IMG/VR virus record: IMGVR_UViG_3300024306_000016
Length of the DNA: 64,000 bases
Reading direction: 5' to 3' (one strand)
Source: an uncultured virus (IMG/VR IMGVR_UViG_3300024306_000016)
Taxonomy: Duplodnaviria > Heunggongvirae > Uroviricota > Caudoviricetes
Below, in pieces: positions 4,337 through 37,565 of the stretch (the stretch's first letter is position 1; the number at the start of each line of letters is the position of its first letter). The notes below the pieces were generated by a model. That model was not told the origin of the DNA, made no database searches, and saw only the letters and a list, made by a program, of their open reading frames with translations. The translations under genes and the position numbers were made by a program.

Positions 4337-5437
4337 TTATATAGCTGGTAAACTATCGTAATCTAGTTTATCTGACATAACTCCGATCACGTAGTTTGTG
4401 CTTTCGTTTTCCTGTAGAGCTGTCTGCTTCTTGCTAGTATCACTATGCTTGTTAAACCAAGGAATCGGAGTTGACTTTGGAGCAGGATTCCAATATTTGA
4501 TTCCAATATCTTTTAGAGCACCGACAGCAGTATAATCTACGAAATCTTTTAGAATATTAGCATTAAGTCCAATAACAGGACCCTTCATAAACAGATAGTC
4601 TGCCCAGGCCTTTTCTTCATCAATGACATCTTTGTAGATTTGAATAACCTCGTCGTGACATTCTTGTGCTGCTTTGGCAAATCGAGGATCTTCTTTGACT
4701 ACTTGATTGATCAAGAAGGCTGTCCAACCTTTGTGTAGTAGTTCGTCTTGTAGGATTAGGCTGATGATGTTGCCATTACCGATAAAGATCTTGTTCTCTA
4801 CCATGGCCAATGATGTAGCAAAGCTAACCATAAAGCGGAATGCTTCGAGAGCGTAACTGGCATGTAGTGCTAGATAGATAGCACGGACATGGTCTTCTTC
4901 TTTAACATCGCCGTTGCATTCTACAACACAGTTAATCTGGTGTAACTTGTCATAGTATGCACCAACGCTTGAGGCCATATCTACAATCTGTTTTGTATCG
5001 TGGATAGTGTTGAACACATCCTTAGGCACATTATAGATGTTGCGGATGATATGGCTGTAACTGCGACTATGAATGTTAGTTTCAAAGAATGTCCAGTTGT
5101 AAACTAACGCTTCTAGTTCTGGTAGGCTTACGACCGGAGTAAAGATTTGACTTGGGCCGCGACCTTGCAGACTGTCAAGAGCAGTTTGGCGGAGCAGGTT
5201 ACTAGTGAAGATATGTTTAACTGCATCCGATGCTTCCTTAAAATCATTTGCATCTTTGGCTAGACTAATCTCTTCTGGAACCCAGAAAAAGCCACGTGCT
5301 GTTTTTTCAAAGTCAGCGATCTTGTTATACTTTACTTCTTCGAATCGTTGAATAGTAACTGGGCCTGCCGGATCTAAGAACATCTTACGATGAAGGTAGT
5401 CTGTCTTTGCGTGTAGGTTATATTGTTGTTTGCTCAT
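4337..5437 (-). CDS. nrdB: ribonucleotide reductase class Ia beta subunit
   Basis: FFWVPEEI, LDSLQ, ETNIHSRSY (radical Tyr), LEAFRF, DELLH diiron motifs. Confidence 0.95.
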   Translation of the reverse strand: MSKQQYNLHAKTDYLHRKMFLDPAGPVTIQRFEEVKYNKIADFEKTARGFFWVPEEISLAKDANDFKEASDAVKHIFTSNLLRQTALDSLQGRGPSQIFTPVVSLPELEALVYNWTFFETNIHSRSYSHIIRNIYNVPKDVFNTIHDTKQIVDMASSVGAYYDKLHQINCVVECNGDVKEEDHVRAIYLALHASYALEAFRFMVSFATSLAMVENKIFIGNGNIISLILQDELLHKGWTAFLINQVVKEDPRFAKAAQECHDEVIQIYKDVIDEEKAWADYLFMKGPVIGLNANILKDFVDYTAVGALKDIGIKYWNPAPKSTPIPWFNKHSDTSKKQTALQENESTNYVIGVMSDKLDYDSLPAI

Positions 5438-5814
5438 TGTCTTTTCTTTTTATAATCGTCTATCGCTGATTTGATTGCATCTTCAGCAAGGATGCTACAA
5501 TGGATTTTGACTGGGGGCAATGCGAGTTCTTCAGCAATCGCTGAATTTTTAATAGTTGAGGCTTCGTCCAGCGTCTTGCCTTTAACCCATTCGGTAACAA
5601 GAGAGGAACTTGCAATCGCAGATCCACACCCGTATGTTTTGAACTTCGCATCTTCAATGATCCCTTTGTCGTTGACTTTGATTTGCAGTTTCATTACGTC
5701 ACCACAAGCTGGAGCCCCAACCATGCCAGTGCCAACATTAGGGTCAGACTTATCAAAGCTGCCAACGTTTCTAGGGTTTTCGTAGTGATCAATAACCTTG
5801 TCTGAGTAGGCCAT
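5434..5814 (-). CDS. iscU: Fe-S cluster scaffold IscU
   Basis: YSDKVIDHYENPRNVG, GAPACGDVM, GCGSAIAS, LPPVKIHC. Confidence 0.97.
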   Translation of the reverse strand: MAYSDKVIDHYENPRNVGSFDKSDPNVGTGMVGAPACGDVMKLQIKVNDKGIIEDAKFKTYGCGSAIASSSLVTEWVKGKTLDEASTIKNSAIAEELALPPVKIHCSILAEDAIKSAIDDYKKKRQ

Positions 5815-6346
5815 TTACTTTCTCCCAGTTGACTATTTTCCATTGATTCTCTAAATACTTTTTCTTGTCTGCCTGATAGTCAAGAGCCCAGGCATGCTCC
5901 CACCAATCTACTAAAATCAAAATATCTTTCTTGATCTGATGATTAGTTATAGTTTTTATTTTACCATCTTTAGCCAAATAGATCCAACCACTTCCTTGTA
6001 TACTCATAGCTGTTTTGGTAAACTCTTCTTTGAACTTATCGAAACTAGAATAATGTTCTTCAATAAACTCTAGTACGCGACCGCTTGGTTTATTACTAGA
6101 AGAGTATTCTTGATATTGTTGGAACAGTATGTTGTGCAGGAAAACACCGGCTTCATTAAAGTCAGGATCGCCTTCACCTTTGTTATATCTTTCTGCGTAG
6201 GTTTTGGCTAGTTTACCATAATGATAGTCTATGGTGTTTTCTGATATGCTAGGATCTAGTTTTTTAGCATCGTAAGGAAGCGGCTCTATTTCTAATACAT
6301 GAGCCTTGCCTTCCTGTAATACATTACGAATAAAACTAAATGCCAT
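5789..6346 (-). CDS. sod: Fe/Mn superoxide dismutase
   Basis: LPY...L.PSIS..TIDYHYGK, LHN, GSGW, DWWEHAW: all four metal ligands present. Confidence 0.9.
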   Translation of the reverse strand: MAFSFIRNVLQEGKAHVLEIEPLPYDAKKLDPSISENTIDYHYGKLAKTYAERYNKGEGDPDFNEAGVFLHNILFQQYQEYSSSNKPSGRVLEFIEEHYSSFDKFKEEFTKTAMSIQGSGWIYLAKDGKIKTITNHQIKKDILILVDWWEHAWALDYQADKKKYLENQWKIVNWEKVNGLLRQGY

Positions 6347-8679
6347 TATAACTTACATGCCTCACAGTCTTCTTCTATACTAGTTTCTACTTCTCTTTCA
6401 TTGTGAAATCCGTTATAGTGTACTTCCGGTGTTGCATCAACAACTTTACTTCCTGCCTTATTGATCAGACTATAATAGAATGTCTTCAGTCCCCACATAT
6501 GTGCCTGCATGAGATTCTTAGCGATCAACGTAGTAGGTACTTTACGATCTGGGAAATGAGCAGGGTTGTAGAAAGTATTAGTACTAATACTCTGATCCAC
6601 ATAAGCAGCCAAGACAGCCGCAGTTTTAATATAGTTAACACAGTCAGTCTGATCCCACATTAGTTGGTATTTGTTCTTGAGCTTATTATAATCTGGGACT
6701 ACTTGAGTAAATGATCCAGCCTTGCTTTCTTTGGTCTGAATCAATGTCATTGGTAACTCAATACCGTTGGTACTATTAATAACCACACTACTGCTTTCCA
6801 CAGGAGCAATAGCCATAAGTGTCGAGTTTCTAACACCATGCTGTTTCATATCCTCTCTTAGGCTTTCCCAATCAAGTTCCGGAGTGAAGTCTGCTAGTTC
6901 GTTAACACCCTTAGAACGAAGTTCCCAAGGAAATATTCCTTGTCCATATCTTGTCTTATCACTGTCTAGGCACTTGCCACGCTCTTTGGCCAGTTCAACT
7001 GTAGCTTCAGTTAGATAGTAAGCCTGATGCTCCATCCATGATTTTACTTCCTGTAGTGCATCTTTCTCGCCATACTTAAGGCCGCGCTTGGCGTGCCAGT
7101 AGGCTAGGTTAGTAACACCAATACCCAATGGTTGGATCTCGTCATTGCTTAGTTTGCTCTGTATCGACAAGAAGTCTTGATAGTCAAGGATGTTACACAG
7201 GCTACGCTGTAGAATCCTACAGGCTCTACGCATATCCTCTGGATTTCGGAACGATCCCCAGTTGATAGATCCCAGTGTACATAACGCTATGCGACCACTA
7301 TCGTCGTCGAGTCTCTTAAAAGGACGTGTGGGTAATAGGATCTCACAGCACAAGTTACTCTGATATATCGTGTGATATTCAGGATCAAAGGGTCCTTGAT
7401 TCATTACGTTATCAATGAACACCAAATAGATACGACCCGTGTCTGTGCGTTCTTTCAGTATACCACCCTTGAAAACTTCCTCGGCACTCATGACCTTCTT
7501 GCGTAGGTCTTTGCGCTTTTCATATTTTACATAGAGCTCTTCAAATAGTTTTGTGTCTTTATAGAAGGACTCATAGAGATCAGGAACTTCGTTAGGATCA
7601 AAGAAAGTAATATTTTCTTTGTTCTTAAAACGGCGCCAGAAGAAACTTGATAGGACCACTCCGTAGTCCATGTGTCTAACGCGAGTCTCTTCAGTTCCTT
7701 GATTATTTTTAAGGACGATGAGATCGTCAAACTGATGATGCCAAATAGGATAAAAGACTGTAGCACTAGCATTTCTAATGCCACCTTGTGAACATGAACG
7801 TAAGTCACTGAACCATTTCTTTAAAAAAGGAATCATGCCAGTGTGCATGATCTCTCCACCTCTGATGGGACTACCTAATGGACGTAGTCTACCGATCTCT
7901 AAACCAATGCCTGCACGTTTGCTGGCATACTTGGCCATCATCTCCCCAGAAGCAAATATGCTATCCAGATCGTCGTCACTCCTGATAAGAACACAACTAG
8001 AAAACTGCTTAGTTGGAGTCCCAAGACCAGCCAACACAGGTGTAGCAAGAGTAAACAGACCATCTGAAGCCGCGTTGTAGTACTCTCTGATGTAACGCAT
8101 ACGGGCTGCATTAGGTTCTTCTTTATGGAATACAGTCGCGGCAGCAACCATATAACGAACTTGTGGTGTTTCATATATTTCCTTGGTAGCTCTATTGCGT
8201 ACCAAGTACTTCTCTATCAACTGCTCAATGGCCGCATATGAGTATTCTTCATCTTTAGAATGATCAATCATATCATTCATTTTGTTCCAGTCTTCTTCAC
8301 TATACCATTCAAGAAGCTCCGGAGTGTAAAGACCAACCTTTACATTTCTTTTAACGATTTCATATAAGTGTGGAGGTTCATATTCTCCATAAACATCTTT
8401 TCGTAACATGCTGAGTCTCTGCTTGCCTGCTACGTACTGATAGTTGGTATGGCCAACATCGGGATTGTGTTCGACATCAATAAGATCGATTATCGCTCTT
8501 AGAGTTATTCCATCAATCTCTTCTGTAGTAATACCATCATAAAAGTTAGGCTGTGCTTTGATCTCTATCATTGACTGGCTGACATCTGCGATGCCTTTGC
8601 ACACTTTTGCTACTTGTGCCTGCCACTTTTCTACCGCTAGGGGCTCTTTCGCTCCACTTCTTTTAATAACTGTGATCAT
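6346..8679 (-). CDS. nrdA: ribonucleotide reductase class Ia alpha subunit
   Basis: ATP-cone N-terminus (VIKRSG), SSCVL, SNLCCEI, ALCTL, TFYY, C-terminal CEAC. Confidence 0.97.
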   Translation of the reverse strand: MITVIKRSGAKEPLAVEKWQAQVAKVCKGIADVSQSMIEIKAQPNFYDGITTEEIDGITLRAIIDLIDVEHNPDVGHTNYQYVAGKQRLSMLRKDVYGEYEPPHLYEIVKRNVKVGLYTPELLEWYSEEDWNKMNDMIDHSKDEEYSYAAIEQLIEKYLVRNRATKEIYETPQVRYMVAAATVFHKEEPNAARMRYIREYYNAASDGLFTLATPVLAGLGTPTKQFSSCVLIRSDDDLDSIFASGEMMAKYASKRAGIGLEIGRLRPLGSPIRGGEIMHTGMIPFLKKWFSDLRSCSQGGIRNASATVFYPIWHHQFDDLIVLKNNQGTEETRVRHMDYGVVLSSFFWRRFKNKENITFFDPNEVPDLYESFYKDTKLFEELYVKYEKRKDLRKKVMSAEEVFKGGILKERTDTGRIYLVFIDNVMNQGPFDPEYHTIYQSNLCCEILLPTRPFKRLDDDSGRIALCTLGSINWGSFRNPEDMRRACRILQRSLCNILDYQDFLSIQSKLSNDEIQPLGIGVTNLAYWHAKRGLKYGEKDALQEVKSWMEHQAYYLTEATVELAKERGKCLDSDKTRYGQGIFPWELRSKGVNELADFTPELDWESLREDMKQHGVRNSTLMAIAPVESSSVVINSTNGIELPMTLIQTKESKAGSFTQVVPDYNKLKNKYQLMWDQTDCVNYIKTAAVLAAYVDQSISTNTFYNPAHFPDRKVPTTLIAKNLMQAHMWGLKTFYYSLINKAGSKVVDATPEVHYNGFHNEREVETSIEEDCEACKL

Positions 8680-18618: not shown

Positions 18619-19329
18619 TTATGTGGTAGTTCTTAATCTTGCTAGTCCTACTGACTCTAATATCTTTATATAGAGCCAACCTATATCAAACTCCCACCAC
18701 TTCTGAGAGAGGCGGGCACTCGCTGGTTCCAAGTGGTGGTTGTTGTGCAACTCTTCTCCACCAATAACAATGCCCCAAGGCACAATATTACGACTATAAT
18801 CACGTGTCGTTCCATTTCTATACCCCCACCAATGTGCTAGGCCGTTTATTACTCCTGCGGCCCAAAATGGAATCCATATCATTTGTATACCCCATACCAA
18901 CAATCCCCACCATCCAAAGATCAAGGTGTTGAGCACAAGGAGAATGCCAATGCCAAGTCTACTGTGAGGCTGGTATAAGTGAAGCTCCAACCAATCAGCA
19001 GGAGTACCAACACCGTATGTATCGACCATATCTTTATCTTTCGATGCTTCATGATACAATAATGCTCCTTGACTAAACACACGCCATATTCCATATACGT
19101 GGGGGCTGTGTGGATCACCATCTTCATCGCTGAATCTGTGATGCTTACGATGTATAGCTACCCATTGTTTTGTTACCATACCGGTTGTTAGCCATAACCA
19201 GAATCGCATAAAATGCTCAACGGCTGGATGAAAAGTTACTGCTCTATGTGCTTGTGCTCTGTGCAAAAACAAAGTAACACACATAATGGTTATGTGTGTC
19301 ATTATTAAAGTGTATATCAATTCTATCAT
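18619..19329 (-). CDS. desA: acyl-CoA/acyl-lipid delta-9 fatty acid desaturase
   Basis: His boxes HRAQAH, HRKHH, HNNHH; DPHSP; WWEFDIGW. Confidence 0.92.
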   Translation of the reverse strand: MIELIYTLIMTHITIMCVTLFLHRAQAHRAVTFHPAVEHFMRFWLWLTTGMVTKQWVAIHRKHHRFSDEDGDPHSPHVYGIWRVFSQGALLYHEASKDKDMVDTYGVGTPADWLELHLYQPHSRLGIGILLVLNTLIFGWWGLLVWGIQMIWIPFWAAGVINGLAHWWGYRNGTTRDYSRNIVPWGIVIGGEELHNNHHLEPASARLSQKWWEFDIGWLYIKILESVGLARLRTTT

Positions 19330-19910
19330 AGTGATCGTTTTATCCTGTTTATAATCAAATCAACTACTCTGTCACTGATAACCACTTCGTAATGATTTAA
19401 CTCCATCTCGACTATTTCAAAGTCTTTGCGTGATCGCATACTATTTAACGTGACCACTCCGTCGTTGGGTTCACTTATCCACGGGCTCTGTCCAGCAGTT
19501 GTTACTACCTGTGTCCAGTTAGGAGGCGCAGGCAAATGACGAGCTTCCATCATCGGTTCGCTCATAGTACCAACATCCTTCATCAACCTGTTAAATGGTA
19601 AGAAGTATTTGGCAAAATCTGCTTGTTCGCTGCCAGCATAAGGAGTGCTTAAACTGACACCTCCTTTGGTAGTTTCTTTATAATGATGGGCCAAATATAA
19701 ACTATAGATACCGCCTAGACTATGACTGATAAAGAACAGTCTGTCGGCATCATCAAGCTGGCCTTTCATCTTTTCGAGATTGTTGAAGAACCCATCATGG
19801 CTCTTATACTCGAGCATTATGTCGGGTTCTTCAAATGTATCTCTAACATACTGCCTAATGTGCGTAAAGCTCTCAGCTGTCGCACTCGCTCCGTGGATAT
19901 AAACTATCAT
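19326..19910 (-). CDS. alpha/beta hydrolase (lipase/esterase-like)
   Basis: YIHG, SHSLGG nucleophile elbow, STPYAG, NDGVV, NH. Confidence 0.85.
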   Translation of the reverse strand: MIVYIHGASATAESFTHIRQYVRDTFEEPDIMLEYKSHDGFFNNLEKMKGQLDDADRLFFISHSLGGIYSLYLAHHYKETTKGGVSLSTPYAGSEQADFAKYFLPFNRLMKDVGTMSEPMMEARHLPAPPNWTQVVTTAGQSPWISEPNDGVVTLNSMRSRKDFEIVEMELNHYEVVISDRVVDLIINRIKRSL

Positions 19911-21118
19911 TAGTGAAACTGATCTGCCTCTGTTGAAGATTTATTAGCTACTGTGCTTGTAGCTCCTACTGCTTCGCTGATCAAATCAAAGTAGCTTACG
20001 CCAACTTCGCGTTGATGTTTGACAGTAGTAAAGCCGCGTTCCTGTGCGGCAAACTCACGTTCCTGCATTTCTGAATAACCAGCCATACCACGTTGCTTGT
20101 AGGCTTCTGCAAGTTCAAATGTTGCTAGGTTAACACTATGGAATCCTGCAAGTGTGATGAACTGGAACTTGTATCCTAGTTCGCCTAGTTCACGTTGGAA
20201 AGTTTCGCATTCATCTACAGATAAAAACTTACGCCAGTTAAAACTAGGAGAGCAGTTATAAGCCAACATTTGGTCTGGAAACTCAGCATGTATAGCATCG
20301 GCGAATTTCTTAGCCTGTGCAATATCAGGTGTACTAGTTTCGAACCATAAGAGATCAGCGTAAGGGGCATAAGCAAGACCTCTCCTAATACATGCATCAA
20401 GCCCATTTTTAAACTTGTAAAAACCTTCTTCAGTGCGTTCATCGATAATAAAATCCTTGTCCAATGGATCGTGATTGCTAGTGATAAGTGTTGCCGATTC
20501 TGCATCTGTACGTGCTAGAATAACTGTGTCAACTCCTGCCACATCTGCGGCTAACCTTGCAGCCTGTAAGTTACGAATAGCTTGGCTAGTTGGGATTAGA
20601 ACCTTGCCGCCTAAGTGCCCACATTTCTTTTCGCTAGATAGTTGATCTTCAAAATGTACTGCGGCTGCGCCTGCTTCGATCATCGCTGACATTAGTTCGT
20701 ATGCGTTTAGTGCTCCGCCGAATCCCGCTTCAGCATCTGCTACGATTGGTAGAAAGTAATCTGTTTCTACTTTACCTTCTGAATATTCAATCTGATCAGC
20801 ACGACGGAATGCATTGTTAATCTGTTTAACAATCGTTGGTACTGAATTTACTGGGTATAGACTTTGGTCTGGGTATACTTGATTAGCTGTATTAGCAGCA
20901 GCAGCCACTTGCCAACCTGATAGATAAATCGCTTTTAGTCCTGCTTTGGCATGTTGAACAGCCTGTTGGCCGCTGTATGCTCCTAGCGTTGCGACATAGG
21001 GTTCTGTCGCTAATAGCTCACGTAGTTTTGTGGCACCACGTTTAGCTAGTGTATGCTCTATTTGCACAGAGCCTTGTAGTTTACGGACTGTGTCTTGTGT
21101 GTAGTTACGCTTCTTCAT
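19910..21118 (-). CDS. aceA: isocitrate lyase
   Basis: [38 protein letters not shown]. Confidence 0.97.
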
Positions 21119-21159
21119 TCATATCTCCTTAAAAGCCTAGTATTTATGGCTCTGCACAA

Positions 21160-21266
21160 GAGAATGATGCTCACTTTAGGAACGGTCCTCGGGCACGACT
21201 CCTACTCCGTTCCAGCCCAGCAGCCGGGCCACCCTGTAACGCATAACGTCCTAAGGTAGGGTGTTC
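21160..21266 (-). ncRNA. candidate structured RNA (multi-stem, possible pseudoknot), family unassigned
   Basis: GC-rich intergenic segment; stems CACCCT/AGGGTG, GCCC/GGGC, GGAACGG/CCGTTCC; loop UGCU can pair with 3' AGCA. Confidence 0.55.
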
Positions 21267-22379
21267 TTACTCTTCTCGTTGTAGTTCAAACGTGAAGTCG
21301 TCTAAGTTAATATTTGGATGTCTTGCTAGAAGTTTTTGTTGTGCATCATCTCTGCTTTCTGCAGGGATACGTGCTGTACGTCCTGTTTGAGTATGTGTGA
21401 CTAACCAGGTACCTTCACCATCGTTAGAGTCGCCTTCTTCTTTGTCGGCTTTAGGAGCTTCGCTGGCGTATGATAATGGGAATCTGCGTTTAATATCAGC
21501 AACACTCTGTGCAATATCATACCCACCTGATACTATACCTGTGCTGTTAGATTTGATTTCTTCGCCTTTCTGTTCAATAGCTGCAACGATGCGTTTCATC
21601 AACCCAGGAAATAGTTCAGAGAATCTTTCATCACTGCGCACAGTCTGGTTACCGTTGTTCAACTGGTTAGTTGGGGCATGCATCTGCCACTTACCGTTGA
21701 CATCGTCTGCGTTTTGTTTGTCAAAGATACTAACGATAGGGCCGTCATCGGCGTAACGATTAAACCATTGAAGTCCCGAGCTAGATCCTGTACAGAAACT
21801 TGCTTGGTATCCGTGTTCGTTGTTGAATGTATAACATGAACCATAGTTCATAGGAACAGTTACTAGGAAACGATCATCGTCGATCAGTGTGATTTCTTTC
21901 TTTTCGCGCTTGTGTTTTTCAATGACTTCTGCGTCTTTGATTCTACGTAGTTCGTTTTGATAATCGCGATCACGAACGATGTTCTGTATCTGTCTTAGGC
22001 TTTTGAATCTGTTAAAATCTTGATCTTTTTCTTTTAGTCTACCGCGTATACTTAGAGCTTTCCATGCACCTAGTGCATCTCCACCTTCACCGTTGACGTC
22101 TTCATAATCTAGTTGTCCGTTTACATATAAACGAGTTAACCATTCATCAAACTTGCCGTCGGCAGAAACATCGCCGTAGTCTGTGGCTCTTAGGCTCTGG
22201 TCTAATAGATCGCTCCATAGCTTTACGATCTGTTCGTCTGTAGGCTTAGGTCCTAGCTTGCCTATTAGATGTTTTGGAATAGTGTGATCGTGTCGCATAG
22301 CGATACCGATCATCTTGATCATCTTGGGATCTTTGATCTTGGCAGCAACATTGGCTTCGAATATTTGTTTTAGTTTCAT
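21267..22379 (-). CDS. putative internal virion protein
   Basis: MKLKQIFE N-terminus; late-gene cluster. Confidence 0.6.
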   Translation of the reverse strand: MKLKQIFEANVAAKIKDPKMIKMIGIAMRHDHTIPKHLIGKLGPKPTDEQIVKLWSDLLDQSLRATDYGDVSADGKFDEWLTRLYVNGQLDYEDVNGEGGDALGAWKALSIRGRLKEKDQDFNRFKSLRQIQNIVRDRDYQNELRRIKDAEVIEKHKREKKEITLIDDDRFLVTVPMNYGSCYTFNNEHGYQASFCTGSSSGLQWFNRYADDGPIVSIFDKQNADDVNGKWQMHAPTNQLNNGNQTVRSDERFSELFPGLMKRIVAAIEQKGEEIKSNSTGIVSGGYDIAQSVADIKRRFPLSYASEAPKADKEEGDSNDGEGTWLVTHTQTGRTARIPAESRDDAQQKLLARHPNINLDDFTFELQREE

Positions 22380-23254: not shown

Positions 23255-23261
23255 CTTGTAT

Positions 23262-24074
23262 TTATCGGTTAGGTAGTCTAGGACGATCATGTCCTAGAGC
23301 TCTGGGGTTTTCTACTGGGTGTACACTATCCTGTTCAGGCCAGCTATAGATATAATCACCAAACTCATCTCGTACTAATAGCCAGCGTATTCCGCCTGCA
23401 GAGTACTGATGTATCTGTGCTTGATATCCTGGGATAGTTGTATCAAAATCTATATCGCCTGTACCTACATCTTCGCCATTTTCGCGAGCCCAGTTTCCTA
23501 CAGCATTTACTTCTTGTCTAGTATTAGGTCCTTGTCCGTTAAGATTACCAATCATCCAAATATCATTTGTTTCTGTGCGAGTAAACGATCTAAACAGATG
23601 TCTGCCTAGTGTACGGATAGCACGTTGCATATTGCCTGGAAGATTAGCCACTTGATGGAACTCGGGATTTTGTATACCTGCTGCTGCTAGATTGGTTCCA
23701 GCGACTGCAGGCAAGTTACGAGTGTTAACATCAACCGCTGGTAAGTTTTGTTGATCAGGTTCAGGATATCCTGGATCATCTGGATCTGCATCTATGTCTC
23801 GCATACGACCAAGCAGGTCTCGCATACGTTGATTAGGTTCTATGTTTCTTGTAGCTCTATGTGTATCAGACTGACTGGCTCTGCGCTGTTGCGGAGCATC
23901 ACCTCGGGGTTCATCACGGGGTTCATCTCTACGCTCTGGTTCAGGAGCCGAAGGTAGATTATCTGCTTTGGGAGAGAAGAGATCGTCAAAACCGGACCAA
24001 TCAATATCCTTATCTTTGAGATCTTGTTTTTTCTTTTTGTCCGCTTCGAGCAGATAATCACGAAAGGTTTTCAT
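23262..24074 (-). CDS. putative internal virion protein
   Basis: MKTFRDYLLE closely resembles the T4 IP capsid-targeting sequence; RDEP and NLPAV repeats. Confidence 0.65.
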   Translation of the reverse strand: MKTFRDYLLEADKKKKQDLKDKDIDWSGFDDLFSPKADNLPSAPEPERRDEPRDEPRGDAPQQRRASQSDTHRATRNIEPNQRMRDLLGRMRDIDADPDDPGYPEPDQQNLPAVDVNTRNLPAVAGTNLAAAGIQNPEFHQVANLPGNMQRAIRTLGRHLFRSFTRTETNDIWMIGNLNGQGPNTRQEVNAVGNWARENGEDVGTGDIDFDTTIPGYQAQIHQYSAGGIRWLLVRDEFGDYIYSWPEQDSVHPVENPRALGHDRPRLPNR

Positions 24075-28563: not shown

Positions 28564-29769
28564 ATGATAGATAAAAAACCCTTTACAGAACTGCTTGCAG
28601 GACTAAAAGAAAACGGAAAATATCGTGTTTTTAACGACATCGTGCGTGAGCGAGGCAAGTTTCCCACAGCATTATGGTATGGTCCTTACAATATCAAGAA
28701 CATCGTAAACTGGTGCTCCAACGATTACCTTGGCATGGGTCAGCACAAAGTTGTCTTAGACGCTATGCACACAGCCTTAGATCATACAGGATCAGGTTCG
28801 GGCGGTACACGCAACATCGGCGGTACCAGCCACTATCACGTAGCTCTAGAACACGAGCTAGCACTACTACACAATAAGGCGCGAGCACTGTTGTTCAGCA
28901 GTGCATATGTGGCCAACGAATGGACTCTTATCGCACTAGCTAAGATCATTCCTAACATACAATACATCAGCGATGAGAATAATCACAACTCGATCATCGT
29001 TGGTATCAGTCACAGCAAGGCATCTAAACAGGTATTCAAGCACAATGACATGGCTGACCTAGAAGATAAACTAGTCAACGCCCAGTTAACTGGTCATGTT
29101 CCTTGTATCGTATTTGAGTCAGTTTATTCTATGGATGGTGATGTAGGCAAGATCAAAGAGATCTGCGATCTCGCAGACAAGTATCATGCCATGACCTATA
29201 TTGATGAAGTACACGCGGTAGGACTCTATGGCGCCCACGGTGGCGGTAAAGTAGAAGAACTAGGATTGGAGTCTAGGATTGATATAATCAATGGTACACT
29301 AGGCAAAGCCTATGGAGTCCAAGGCGGCTATATTGCTGCCGATAGTGACGTCATCGATGCCATACGTTCAGTGGCAGCTGGATTCATCTTTACTACCAGC
29401 ATGAGTCCTGTGGCCTGTGCAGGTGCCCTAGCTGCTGTGAAGTATCTCAAGGATCATAATGAGATACGAGAGAAACATCAAGAACGTGCTCGTAAACTCA
29501 AACACAGACTAAAGGTAGCAGGTATTCCTGTTATGGAATGCTCTACTACTCACATCGTTCCTGTGCTTGTAGGTGATGCTAAGAAGTGTAAGTCAATGAG
29601 TGATATGCTGTTAGCAGAACACAATATCTATGTGCAGCCAATCAACTATCCTACTGTGGACGTAGGCACAGAGCGTTTACGCTTTGCACCTACACCATTC
29701 CATAATGATTCTATGATTGAGGATCTGGTAACTGCGCTGGTTGCCGTGTTTGAGAGTCACCGGGACTAA
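28564..29769 (+). CDS. hemA: 5-aminolevulinate synthase (Shemin/C4 pathway)
   Basis: [48 protein letters not shown] (PLP Lys), GFIFTTS, INYPTV. Confidence 0.93.
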
Positions 29770-30103
29770 TACGATAACGATCCTCTCCGTTTTCAGTGGT
29801 TCCCACTTCAAAGATAATGCCGCTATCGCTAAGGCAAGTTAGTTGATGTGGACTCAAAGGCGCTACTTCAAAGGCACTGCCTGTCTGAAGTTCTATCTCT
29901 CTATGTTCGCCAGTCTTGGTATCAACAAAGTTTAGTTTAAATGTGCCTTCATTAATGAACCAGCTCTTTCTACGTTCGCTGTGATAGACCATGCTAGTCT
30001 TAGCGCCTGCACGTTCAAAGACTAAGAGCTTGCCGCTATACTTTTCATTGTTGCACCAAAGGATTTCAAATCCCCAACCTCTTTCTATTCTTCCTAGATC
30101 CAT
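29711..30103 (-). CDS. cupin-fold protein (mannose-6-phosphate isomerase type II-like)
   Basis: RGWGFE...YSGKLL...SMVYH...PHQL...FEVGT. Confidence 0.7.
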
Positions 30104-30693
30104 TATGGTCTCCGATCGATGATTTGATCTACTAGACCATAGGCCTTGGCTTCTTCTGCTGACATAAACGTATCACGATCCATGTCACGTTCAAAGTCTT
30201 GATAGGTCTTGCCCGCAGTATTGTGCTTGACATAGAGCTCAGTTAAGATAGTTTTCATCTTAGTGATCTCTTTGTATTGGATTTCGATATCGCTCTGCAT
30301 ACCACGAGCACCTCCCGATGGTTGGTGGATCATATGACGTGCATAGGGCAACATAAACCTTTTACCTTTGGCTCCTGCCTGTGCAAGGAAACTGCCCATT
30401 GAGCAGGCTTGACCCATTACATAGGTTGCTACGTCTGGCTTAATAAACTGCATGGTATCATAGATAGCCATACCTGCTGTGATAACACCGCCAGGACTGT
30501 TAATAAACAAACTGATGTCTTGATCAGGATTTTCACTTTCTAAGAATAGCAACTGTGCTACGATAGTATTAGCCATGTTATCTTCTACAGGACCATTCAA
30601 CATGATGATCCGTTCTTTGAGCAAGCGACTGTAGATATCGTAGGCACGCTCACCCTTGCTGGTAGTTTCGATAACCATTGGAATCAAACTCAT
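30103..30693 (-). CDS. clpP: ATP-dependent Clp protease proteolytic subunit
   Basis: [23 protein letters not shown] (Ser), MIHQP (His), DRD (Asp). Confidence 0.96.
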
Positions 30694-37432: not shown

Positions 37433-37565
37433 ACAGCAGCTACAGCAGCAGAGTTTTCCGGGGGGCCTATAGCTCAGACGGTTAGAGCAGTGGACTCATA
37501 ATCCATTGGTCCTTGGTTCGAATCCAAGTGGGCCCACCATCACAACAACAGCAGCTACAGCAGCA
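37432..37565 (+). repeat. 19 bp direct repeat flanking the tRNA
   Basis: AACAGCAGCTACAGCAGCA at 37432-37450 and 37547-37565. Confidence 0.85.
37463..37539 (+). tRNA. tRNA with CAT anticodon, most likely tRNA-Ile2 (lysidine, reads AUA)
   Basis: Acceptor GGGCCTA/TGGGCCC, D arm GCTC/GAGC, anticodon loop CTCATAA, TTCGAAT T loop, encoded CCA; lacks initiator features. Confidence 0.9.

Follow-up and report, generated by a model that had tools for sequence, protein, structure and literature searches.

A family of structured RNAs in aquatic phages predicted to pair with host 23S rRNA

A short gap on the minus strand of a phage genome, between an open reading frame (ORF) and an isocitrate lyase gene, reads like a structured RNA, and the locus raises the question of whether such an RNA exists and, if it does, what it acts on. 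The stretch of DNA analyzed here (the window, 64,000 nt) belongs to a 122.5-kb fragment, 34% complete, of a phage that we judge to be a T4-like myovirus from its gp32, gp15, sheath, and terminase matches, and whose genome carries class I ribonucleotide reductase genes. Host-like cargo is found in the window at 18619-21118, 28564-30693, and 37463-37539 (isocitrate lyase, fatty-acid desaturase, class I/II aminotransferase, and ClpP), regions that also include a single tRNA with a CAT anticodon. Genes for IscU/NifU and superoxide dismutase stand between two ribonucleotide reductase genes (window 4340-8679), and at 104-120 kb of the genome (L571:184-15775) there are four tryptophan-halogenase-family genes among about ten 2OG-Fe(II) oxygenase, JmjC, and DUF6445 genes. 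The features of the locus itself are as follows.

21168..21266, minus strand: whole RNA element, three stems and a loop-2/tail pseudoknot, beginning directly past the upstream stop codon
21230..21263, minus strand: stem 1 (21263-21258 with 21235-21230), enclosing the loop-1 bulge and a small variable hairpin
21248..21259, minus strand: loop-1 block, 12 nt, exact complement of E. coli 23S 1922-1933
21215..21229, minus strand: stem 2 (four pairs) and the 7-nt loop 2 (21225-21219), with covariation
21224-21222 (loop 2) with 21171-21169 (tail), minus strand: pseudoknot, with covariation
21179..21213, minus strand: stem 3 (21213-21207 with 21185-21179), which holds an internal loop and loop 3
21193..21200, minus strand: loop 3 of the window, AGUCGUGC, 6-nt complement of 23S 1964-1969, weak alone
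21186..21190, minus strand: 3' side of the stem-3 internal loop, which could add five pairs to 23S 1940-1944 (weak and post hoc)
21168..21177, minus strand: tail, of which 21171-21169 closes the pseudoknot with loop 2
21267..22379, minus strand: upstream 370-aa ORF, of the commonest upstream protein family in the element set (26 of 133)
19910..21118, minus strand: isocitrate lyase gene aceA (PF00463, E 5.6e-102)
21141..21146, minus strand: TAAATA ahead of aceA, a putative promoter separating aceA from the element
23259..23264, minus strand: nearest upstream TAAATA, a putative promoter about 2 kb from the element

Re-reading and folding the sequence bore out the letters, the three helices, and the 21-nt helix-3 insert given by the original prediction, along with its high GC in an AT-rich region (0.57 in the element vs 0.43 in the genome), the lack of a U tract on the minus strand, and the TAAATA at 21146-21141. 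The upstream gene had been called a virion gene, an attribution that we could not sustain, as ORF 21267-22379 has no Pfam or PHROGs match. TAAATA recurs ahead of genes in this genome, and since the nearest upstream copy lies about 2 kb away and the next stands just downstream, the element likely ends a late unit, with 23259..23264 the likely start of a two-gene unit that it closes.

By folding energy, the window's element does not stand out from chance (z -0.28; 77 of 200 shuffles fold as well), so that the proof of the element is comparative. Six pattern scans of IMG/VR gave estimates of about 330, 1400, 270, 1700, 1100, and 810 stored stretches, and a scan of metagenome contigs gave about 1200; these estimates count stretches, not genomes, and the loose patterns include chance matches. 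About 120 loci were listed per scan, and the element counts given here come from the matches listed. The blocks demanded were varied between patterns, so that every block was seen unbiased once, and the homologues are related, so that counts are not independent. Stem 2 is present in 108 of 116 and 104 of 117 unique matches listed in two scans. Its inner three pairs are paired in all of 213 unique homologues, with CG/GC/AU flips, the innermost pair being fixed by the search filter in that set. In an alignment of 55 rows chosen for diversity, out of 65 candidates from 296 unique parses, stem 2 and the loop-2 GCU/tail AGC pairing show double changes in seven of seven pairs, which are 97.7% paired, a value that none of 500 shuffles reached and that lies far above slid controls. 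The covarying homologues anticipated in viral metagenomes are thus at hand. The predicted pseudoknot exists in a shifted register: the first GCU of loop 2 pairs with the tail AGC (double changes in three of three pairs, 96% paired), whereas the UGCU/AGCA register proposed before is 82% paired, a value matched by 102 of 500 shuffles. When the pattern left loop 2 and the tail open, deviating elements numbered 43 of 116 and 17 of 103; most of them change both sides together, up to wholly different knots of 5-8 pairs. RNAalifold on a MAFFT alignment recovered stem 2 alone because stems 1 and 3 vary in length; these two stems are based on per-sequence folds and inspection instead of pair counts, and the small hairpin within stem 1 is absent from short homologues. 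The minus strand folds better in 137 of 213 homologues, with more G-U pairs (537/5018 vs 383/4737), a modest margin. Reading the plus strand as an rRNA mimic was rejected because the blocks would stand out of order. On this comparative evidence the gap at 21168-21266 holds a real RNA element and, judged by sequence pattern, it belongs to a family that counts more than a thousand stored stretches among contigs of aquatic phages.

The failure to place the element in a known family by eye was upheld by Rfam 15: at two thresholds, its covariance models gave no match on the element and only tRNA elsewhere in the window. RF00442 (guanidine-I/ykkC) gave no match in the element's own record and did match the positive control, Bacillus subtilis. 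The genomic neighborhood is diverse, with 40 upstream and 50 downstream protein clusters around 140 elements with long flanks. There is no constant downstream gene class (50 clusters among 137 downstream proteins), and an isocitrate lyase cluster follows the element in 2 of 137 cases. Together with the intervening TAAATA, this agrees with the original view that the element, whose 3' end lies 50 nt ahead of aceA, is not an aceA leader; the isocitrate lyase gene is a neighbor, outside the element's system, and a riboswitch for aceA is scarcely credible. We found no second copy in the element's own record with the family covariance model, nor among 10 large records by patterns that miss some variants; an extra match in one record (G005) was rejected as a plain hairpin. 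In bacterial and archaeal genomes, one loose pattern gave a full element in 1 of the 120 loci listed. A genome-collection contig (L315) carries a full element of the window's loop-3 class and is probably a binned phage contig.

The strongest constraint in the family falls on loop 1. Its likeness to rRNA was tested against E. coli rrnB. Across the family, loop 1 reads as the reverse complement of 23S 1922-1930 (helix 69/70), and the match extends via stem letters to 1919-1933; in the window, allowing two one-base gaps, the match reaches 21236, with 22 of 23 aligned positions over 23S 1910-1933. In a search that did not demand it, loop 1 turned up in 189 of the 191 unique elements (for 11 of these, by inspection), and the longest antisense match in 16S plus 23S (4446 bases) is centered at 23S 1920-1929 in 175 of the 191. 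Another scan, with 110 unique matches, gave 87 exact cores, 10 elements with one change, and 13 apparent chance matches; six of the one-change elements shift the exposed match to 23S 1918-1927, one is degenerate, and several loop-1 changes keep rRNA pairing through G-U. Loop 1 is near-fixed, we argue, because it is complementary to 23S rRNA, and as loop 2 and the tail drift in step, fixity is confined to the rRNA-matching loops. The 23S target is itself near-invariant, being identical in E. coli, one Bacteroidota, and one gammaproteobacterial genome (three of five genomes gave the locus). One Streptomyces 23S (L1053, G011) departs from it at 1921-1922, a version that none of the observed loop-1 variants matches. 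A loop is degenerate or missing in L1051, L657, and L907, with L657 retaining stem 2, stem 3, and the tail and having no loop 1 within 80 nt upstream. In four homologues (L349, L446, L685, L700) and in a copy from the cultured Pseudomonas phage PA5oct (L1062:1501-1604; MK797984 115463-115566), the element contains a copy of the loop-1 target sequence, and pairing with it in a hairpin can mask loop 1.

Short matches to rRNA are common, and one match alone proves little; the force of the argument lies in the family. The window's genome holds 49 bare 12-nt rRNA matches against about 65 expected, and of 2474 tiles cut from it, 3 reach the element's score. It could be supposed, then, that the match arises by chance, with loop 1 serving as a self-dimerizing near-palindrome or protein site and the element as a 3'-end stabilizer or terminator. 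Loop 1 does contain an interrupted palindrome (CCUUAGG), perfect in 6 of 97 elements, and many homologues have U-rich letters past the tail; in the window's element, no G+C hairpin followed by a U run was found on the minus strand. We consider this explanation improbable, since it accounts neither for the rRNA match beyond the palindrome nor for the loop-1 changes preserved through G-U, and the exposed loop of the perfect-palindrome subgroup still complements 23S 1918-1927. It also leaves unexplained why independent loop-3 sequences land less than 50 nt from the loop-1 target.

Loop 3 was left free in the search, and five classes were distinguished by the stretch of 23S that they complement, with the chance P being that of a random loop against 23S 1900-1990.

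23S 1930-1937: 8 nt, P 0.002, the commonest class
23S 1968-1976: 9 nt, P 0.0004
23S 1971-1978: 8 nt, P 0.004
23S 1964-1969: 6 nt, P 0.05-0.08, the window's own class
23S 1938-1942: 5 nt, P 0.24-0.33

Three of the five classes match 23S strongly and two weakly, the window's class being among the weak ones. The core of the window's loop 3 has three equal 6-nt matches in 23S, whereas the homologue L922 carries a perfect 8-nt form of this class (23S 1964-1971) that is unique in rRNA, and the homologue L877 has the window's stems 1, 2, and 3 and tail nearly letter for letter with a loop 3 that matches 1968-1975 instead. In a separate metagenome set, gathered after the rRNA idea was formed, loop 3 falls in known classes for 97 of 104 elements; the other seven comprise three cut by contig ends, one apparent chance match, a deletion (L889), a shrunken stem 3 (L907), and L922. 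Classes 1968-1976 and 1971-1978 have a common core and may be of one origin, and with related sequences in addition, the data show about three separate choices of target. Past loop 3, a purine run that could pair with 23S 1938-1944 occurs in 100 of 142 elements of the window's class vs 24 of 154 others, an observation confined to one clade and noticed after the fact. Seven members of class 1971-1978 carry a linker able to hide loop 3, and five others of the class have no such linker; such linkers, like the internal copies that mask loop 1, could act as a proofreading or release switch.

Energy calculations point to the same region. With the cost of unfolding subtracted, the two best of 95 windows by net binding energy are those over helices 69-71 in five of six elements, L092 ranking another window first, and the PA5oct copy ranks a helix 69-71 window first. 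Searched against E. coli rrnB, the family model has as its sole match the reverse strand of 23S 1897-1942 (E 0.011). Loop 2 complements the 16S 530 loop over 9 nt (P 0.016; 209 of 214 in a set whose filter demanded that block), and we rejected this pairing as a requirement because loop 2 changes together with the tail. The commonest loop 2 and tail (window 21219-21225 and 21168-21177) complement 23S 1070-1076 and about 1098-1105, two neighboring pieces of the L11-binding domain; these 7-mers are each within chance, and both vary in other members. Taken together, conserved exposed loops complement one region, as in the antisense mode of C4-like RNAs, the window's own loop 3 being weak in this respect, and the element very probably pairs with 23S rRNA.

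What would such pairing do? We tentatively propose that the element works as an antisense clamp whose two arms grip free or immature 50S subunits at 23S 1919-1978 (helices 67-71). Its source would be a late message, of which it forms the 3' end, either uncut or trimmed, and it likely acts in trans. The pseudoknot would hold loops 1 and 3 out and shield the 3' end, and each loop would pair over less than one helical turn, loop 1 taking the 3' strand of helix 69 and helix 70 and loop 3 a neighboring strand. This would keep the subunit interface open, so that a free or unfinished 50S could not join the 30S. As working 70S ribosomes bury the target surface, phage translation would continue while idle and nascent 50S are withdrawn, and it may be conjectured that withdrawn subunits are broken down to feed the phage ribonucleotide reductase. 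The clamp is favored because the two arms would pull on strands of adjacent interface helices, and because H68-71 fold last and helix/loop 70 can be reached in the free 50S, with the formed 70S spared. In support of these premises, PMC11077053 states that the functional-core helices are the last to form and that an immature state leaves H68-71 unresolved, and PMC6101614 that MazF-mt6 cuts helix/loop 70 in the free 50S.

The same loops might instead guide a modifying or cutting protein to its site in 23S, or the RNA might cut by itself. In the commonest class, loops 1 and 3 tile 23S 1922-1930 and 1930-1937 end to end, as a guide would. Across classes, however, loop 3 shifts by up to 40 nt, with targets ranging from 1930 to 1978 and no fixed arm spacing, so that a fixed register is lost; there is no conserved neighbor protein, and a Pfam search of 162 ORFs in the 34%-complete record gave no Nop-domain or rRNA-modifying family. 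As for catalysis, the description of the element as ribozyme-like did not hold up: the pseudoknot letters and loop 3 change freely, loop 1 is the sole near-fixed block, no invariant catalytic core is found among loop 2, the tail, and loop 3, and there is no Rfam ribozyme match. We regard a guide or catalyst as very improbable.

Members in cultured phages bear on a further possibility. The family model has one match each in the Pseudomonas phages PA5oct and Paride (E 0.0014, rough calibration), which BLAST of three variants against cultured phages, giving only short chance matches, had missed; 11 Pseudomonas phage records hold a member. With E. coli 23S as reference, loop 1 of the PA5oct copy matches 1920-1930 and loop 3 matches 1929-1937. 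This copy is not among the four abundant noncoding RNAs in Table 1 of PMC7318152, and ncRNA001 and ncRNA002 of PA5oct, considered as candidates, are not the element. Paride replicates in deep-dormant cells, as stated in PMC10761892, and a shield or chaperone that covers helices 69-71 of the free 50S against toxins or nucleases, or that reactivates resting subunits in slow-growing hosts, would suit such a life. It would use the same complementarity to 23S as the clamp, helix/loop 70 is a toxin site on the free 50S (PMC6101614), one loop-3 class covers 1938-1942, and the self-masking variants would give reversible binding. Yet the commonest loops cover 1922-1937, beside the toxin site and not on it; the Paride paper (PMC10761892) makes no mention of ribosomes or rRNA; and an antisense 13-mer to helix 69 appears as an antimicrobial in PMC12916000. 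A protective role seems unlikely to us.

A cis-acting role is about equally unlikely, in which the element, as part of the message, tethers the 50S released at the upstream stop codon and holds it near phage mRNA for reuse. The position of the element invites this idea: 124 of 140 elements with long flanks follow an ORF on the same strand (3 lie inside an ORF), a stop codon stands 4-14 nt ahead of loop 1 in 81 of those 124 and 2-16 nt ahead in 134 of 194, the PA5oct copy abuts a stop codon, and TAAATA occurs within 60 nt upstream in only 12 of 140. River metatranscriptomes contain the region (21 runs, 19 of them recorded as RNA), and 1 of 4 RNA runs examined has a contig over the element (depth 2.8), which spans gene and element from 21344 to 21170 and ends at 21170; this contig, running from the gene into the element, is a weak hint. 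Against a tether stand the diversity of the neighboring clusters, the single copy in each genome examined, and the absence of a reading-frame lock between stop codon and element (63/48/43). In compact genomes, whatever lies between genes will be close to a stop codon, and helix 69-70, once opened, would have to be released before the subunits join. Whichever of these uses applies, whether withdrawal, salvage, or reactivation, it seems rather more probable than otherwise, from the sequence comparisons, that large phages seize host 50S subunits with a two-armed RNA at helices 69-71.

By our literature search, this is an undescribed kind of phage RNA element, with a predicted function. In a search of the open-access literature, we found no description of the motif, of a phage RNA complementary to 23S, or of a bacterial or phage RNA pairing with the working core of 23S rRNA, and the terms rRNA and 23S are absent from a 2025 review of phage small RNAs. 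The motif letters do not occur in four supplementary files of PMC10690425, whose tables may hold no sequences, and the fold may be present, without a name, among the candidates of that study. If the proposal is true, viruses would have a new means of controlling host ribosomes, one that is common among phages of aquatic habitats, and the element would offer a natural scaffold whose exchangeable arms address a universal target. It would also represent antisense regulation of rRNA that occurs in nature and whose targeting loops can be swapped, carried by a cultured phage able to multiply in dormant cells. The copies in PA5oct and Paride make the question testable at the bench, and the element bears on how large phages obtain ribosomes and nucleotides when the host grows slowly or lies dormant.

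Several known systems share parts of this design. TURBS lies before a stop codon and pairs with small-subunit rRNA, and both TURBS and the 3' translation enhancers of plant viruses are eukaryotic. They are likewise viral mRNA elements near a stop that contact rRNA or a subunit; unlike TURBS, the element lies past the stop codon and has its match in the interface of the large subunit. In H/ACA and chaperone snoRNAs, two short antisense arms on a folded scaffold pair with rRNA. The element has the two arms in common with them, but belongs to a bacterial virus, has a different fold and no fixed register, and no partner proteins were found. The likeness to the guanidine-I/ykkC scaffold, which is of similar size, is confined to two short blocks; the element differs from it in lacking an RF00442 match and a constant downstream gene. 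The C4 antisense RNA of phages P1 and P7, as described in PMC12197685, is likewise a phage-made folded RNA that presents complementary stretches in loops, but C4 targets the phage's own ant message, whereas the predicted target of the element, which has no Rfam match to the C4 family, is host 23S rRNA. The predicted outcome is shared with the ribosome silencing factor RsfS, which, according to PMC6101614, binds the free 50S, blocks joining, and spares the formed 70S; RsfS is a host protein that binds uL14, whereas the element is an RNA predicted to pair with 23S rRNA itself.
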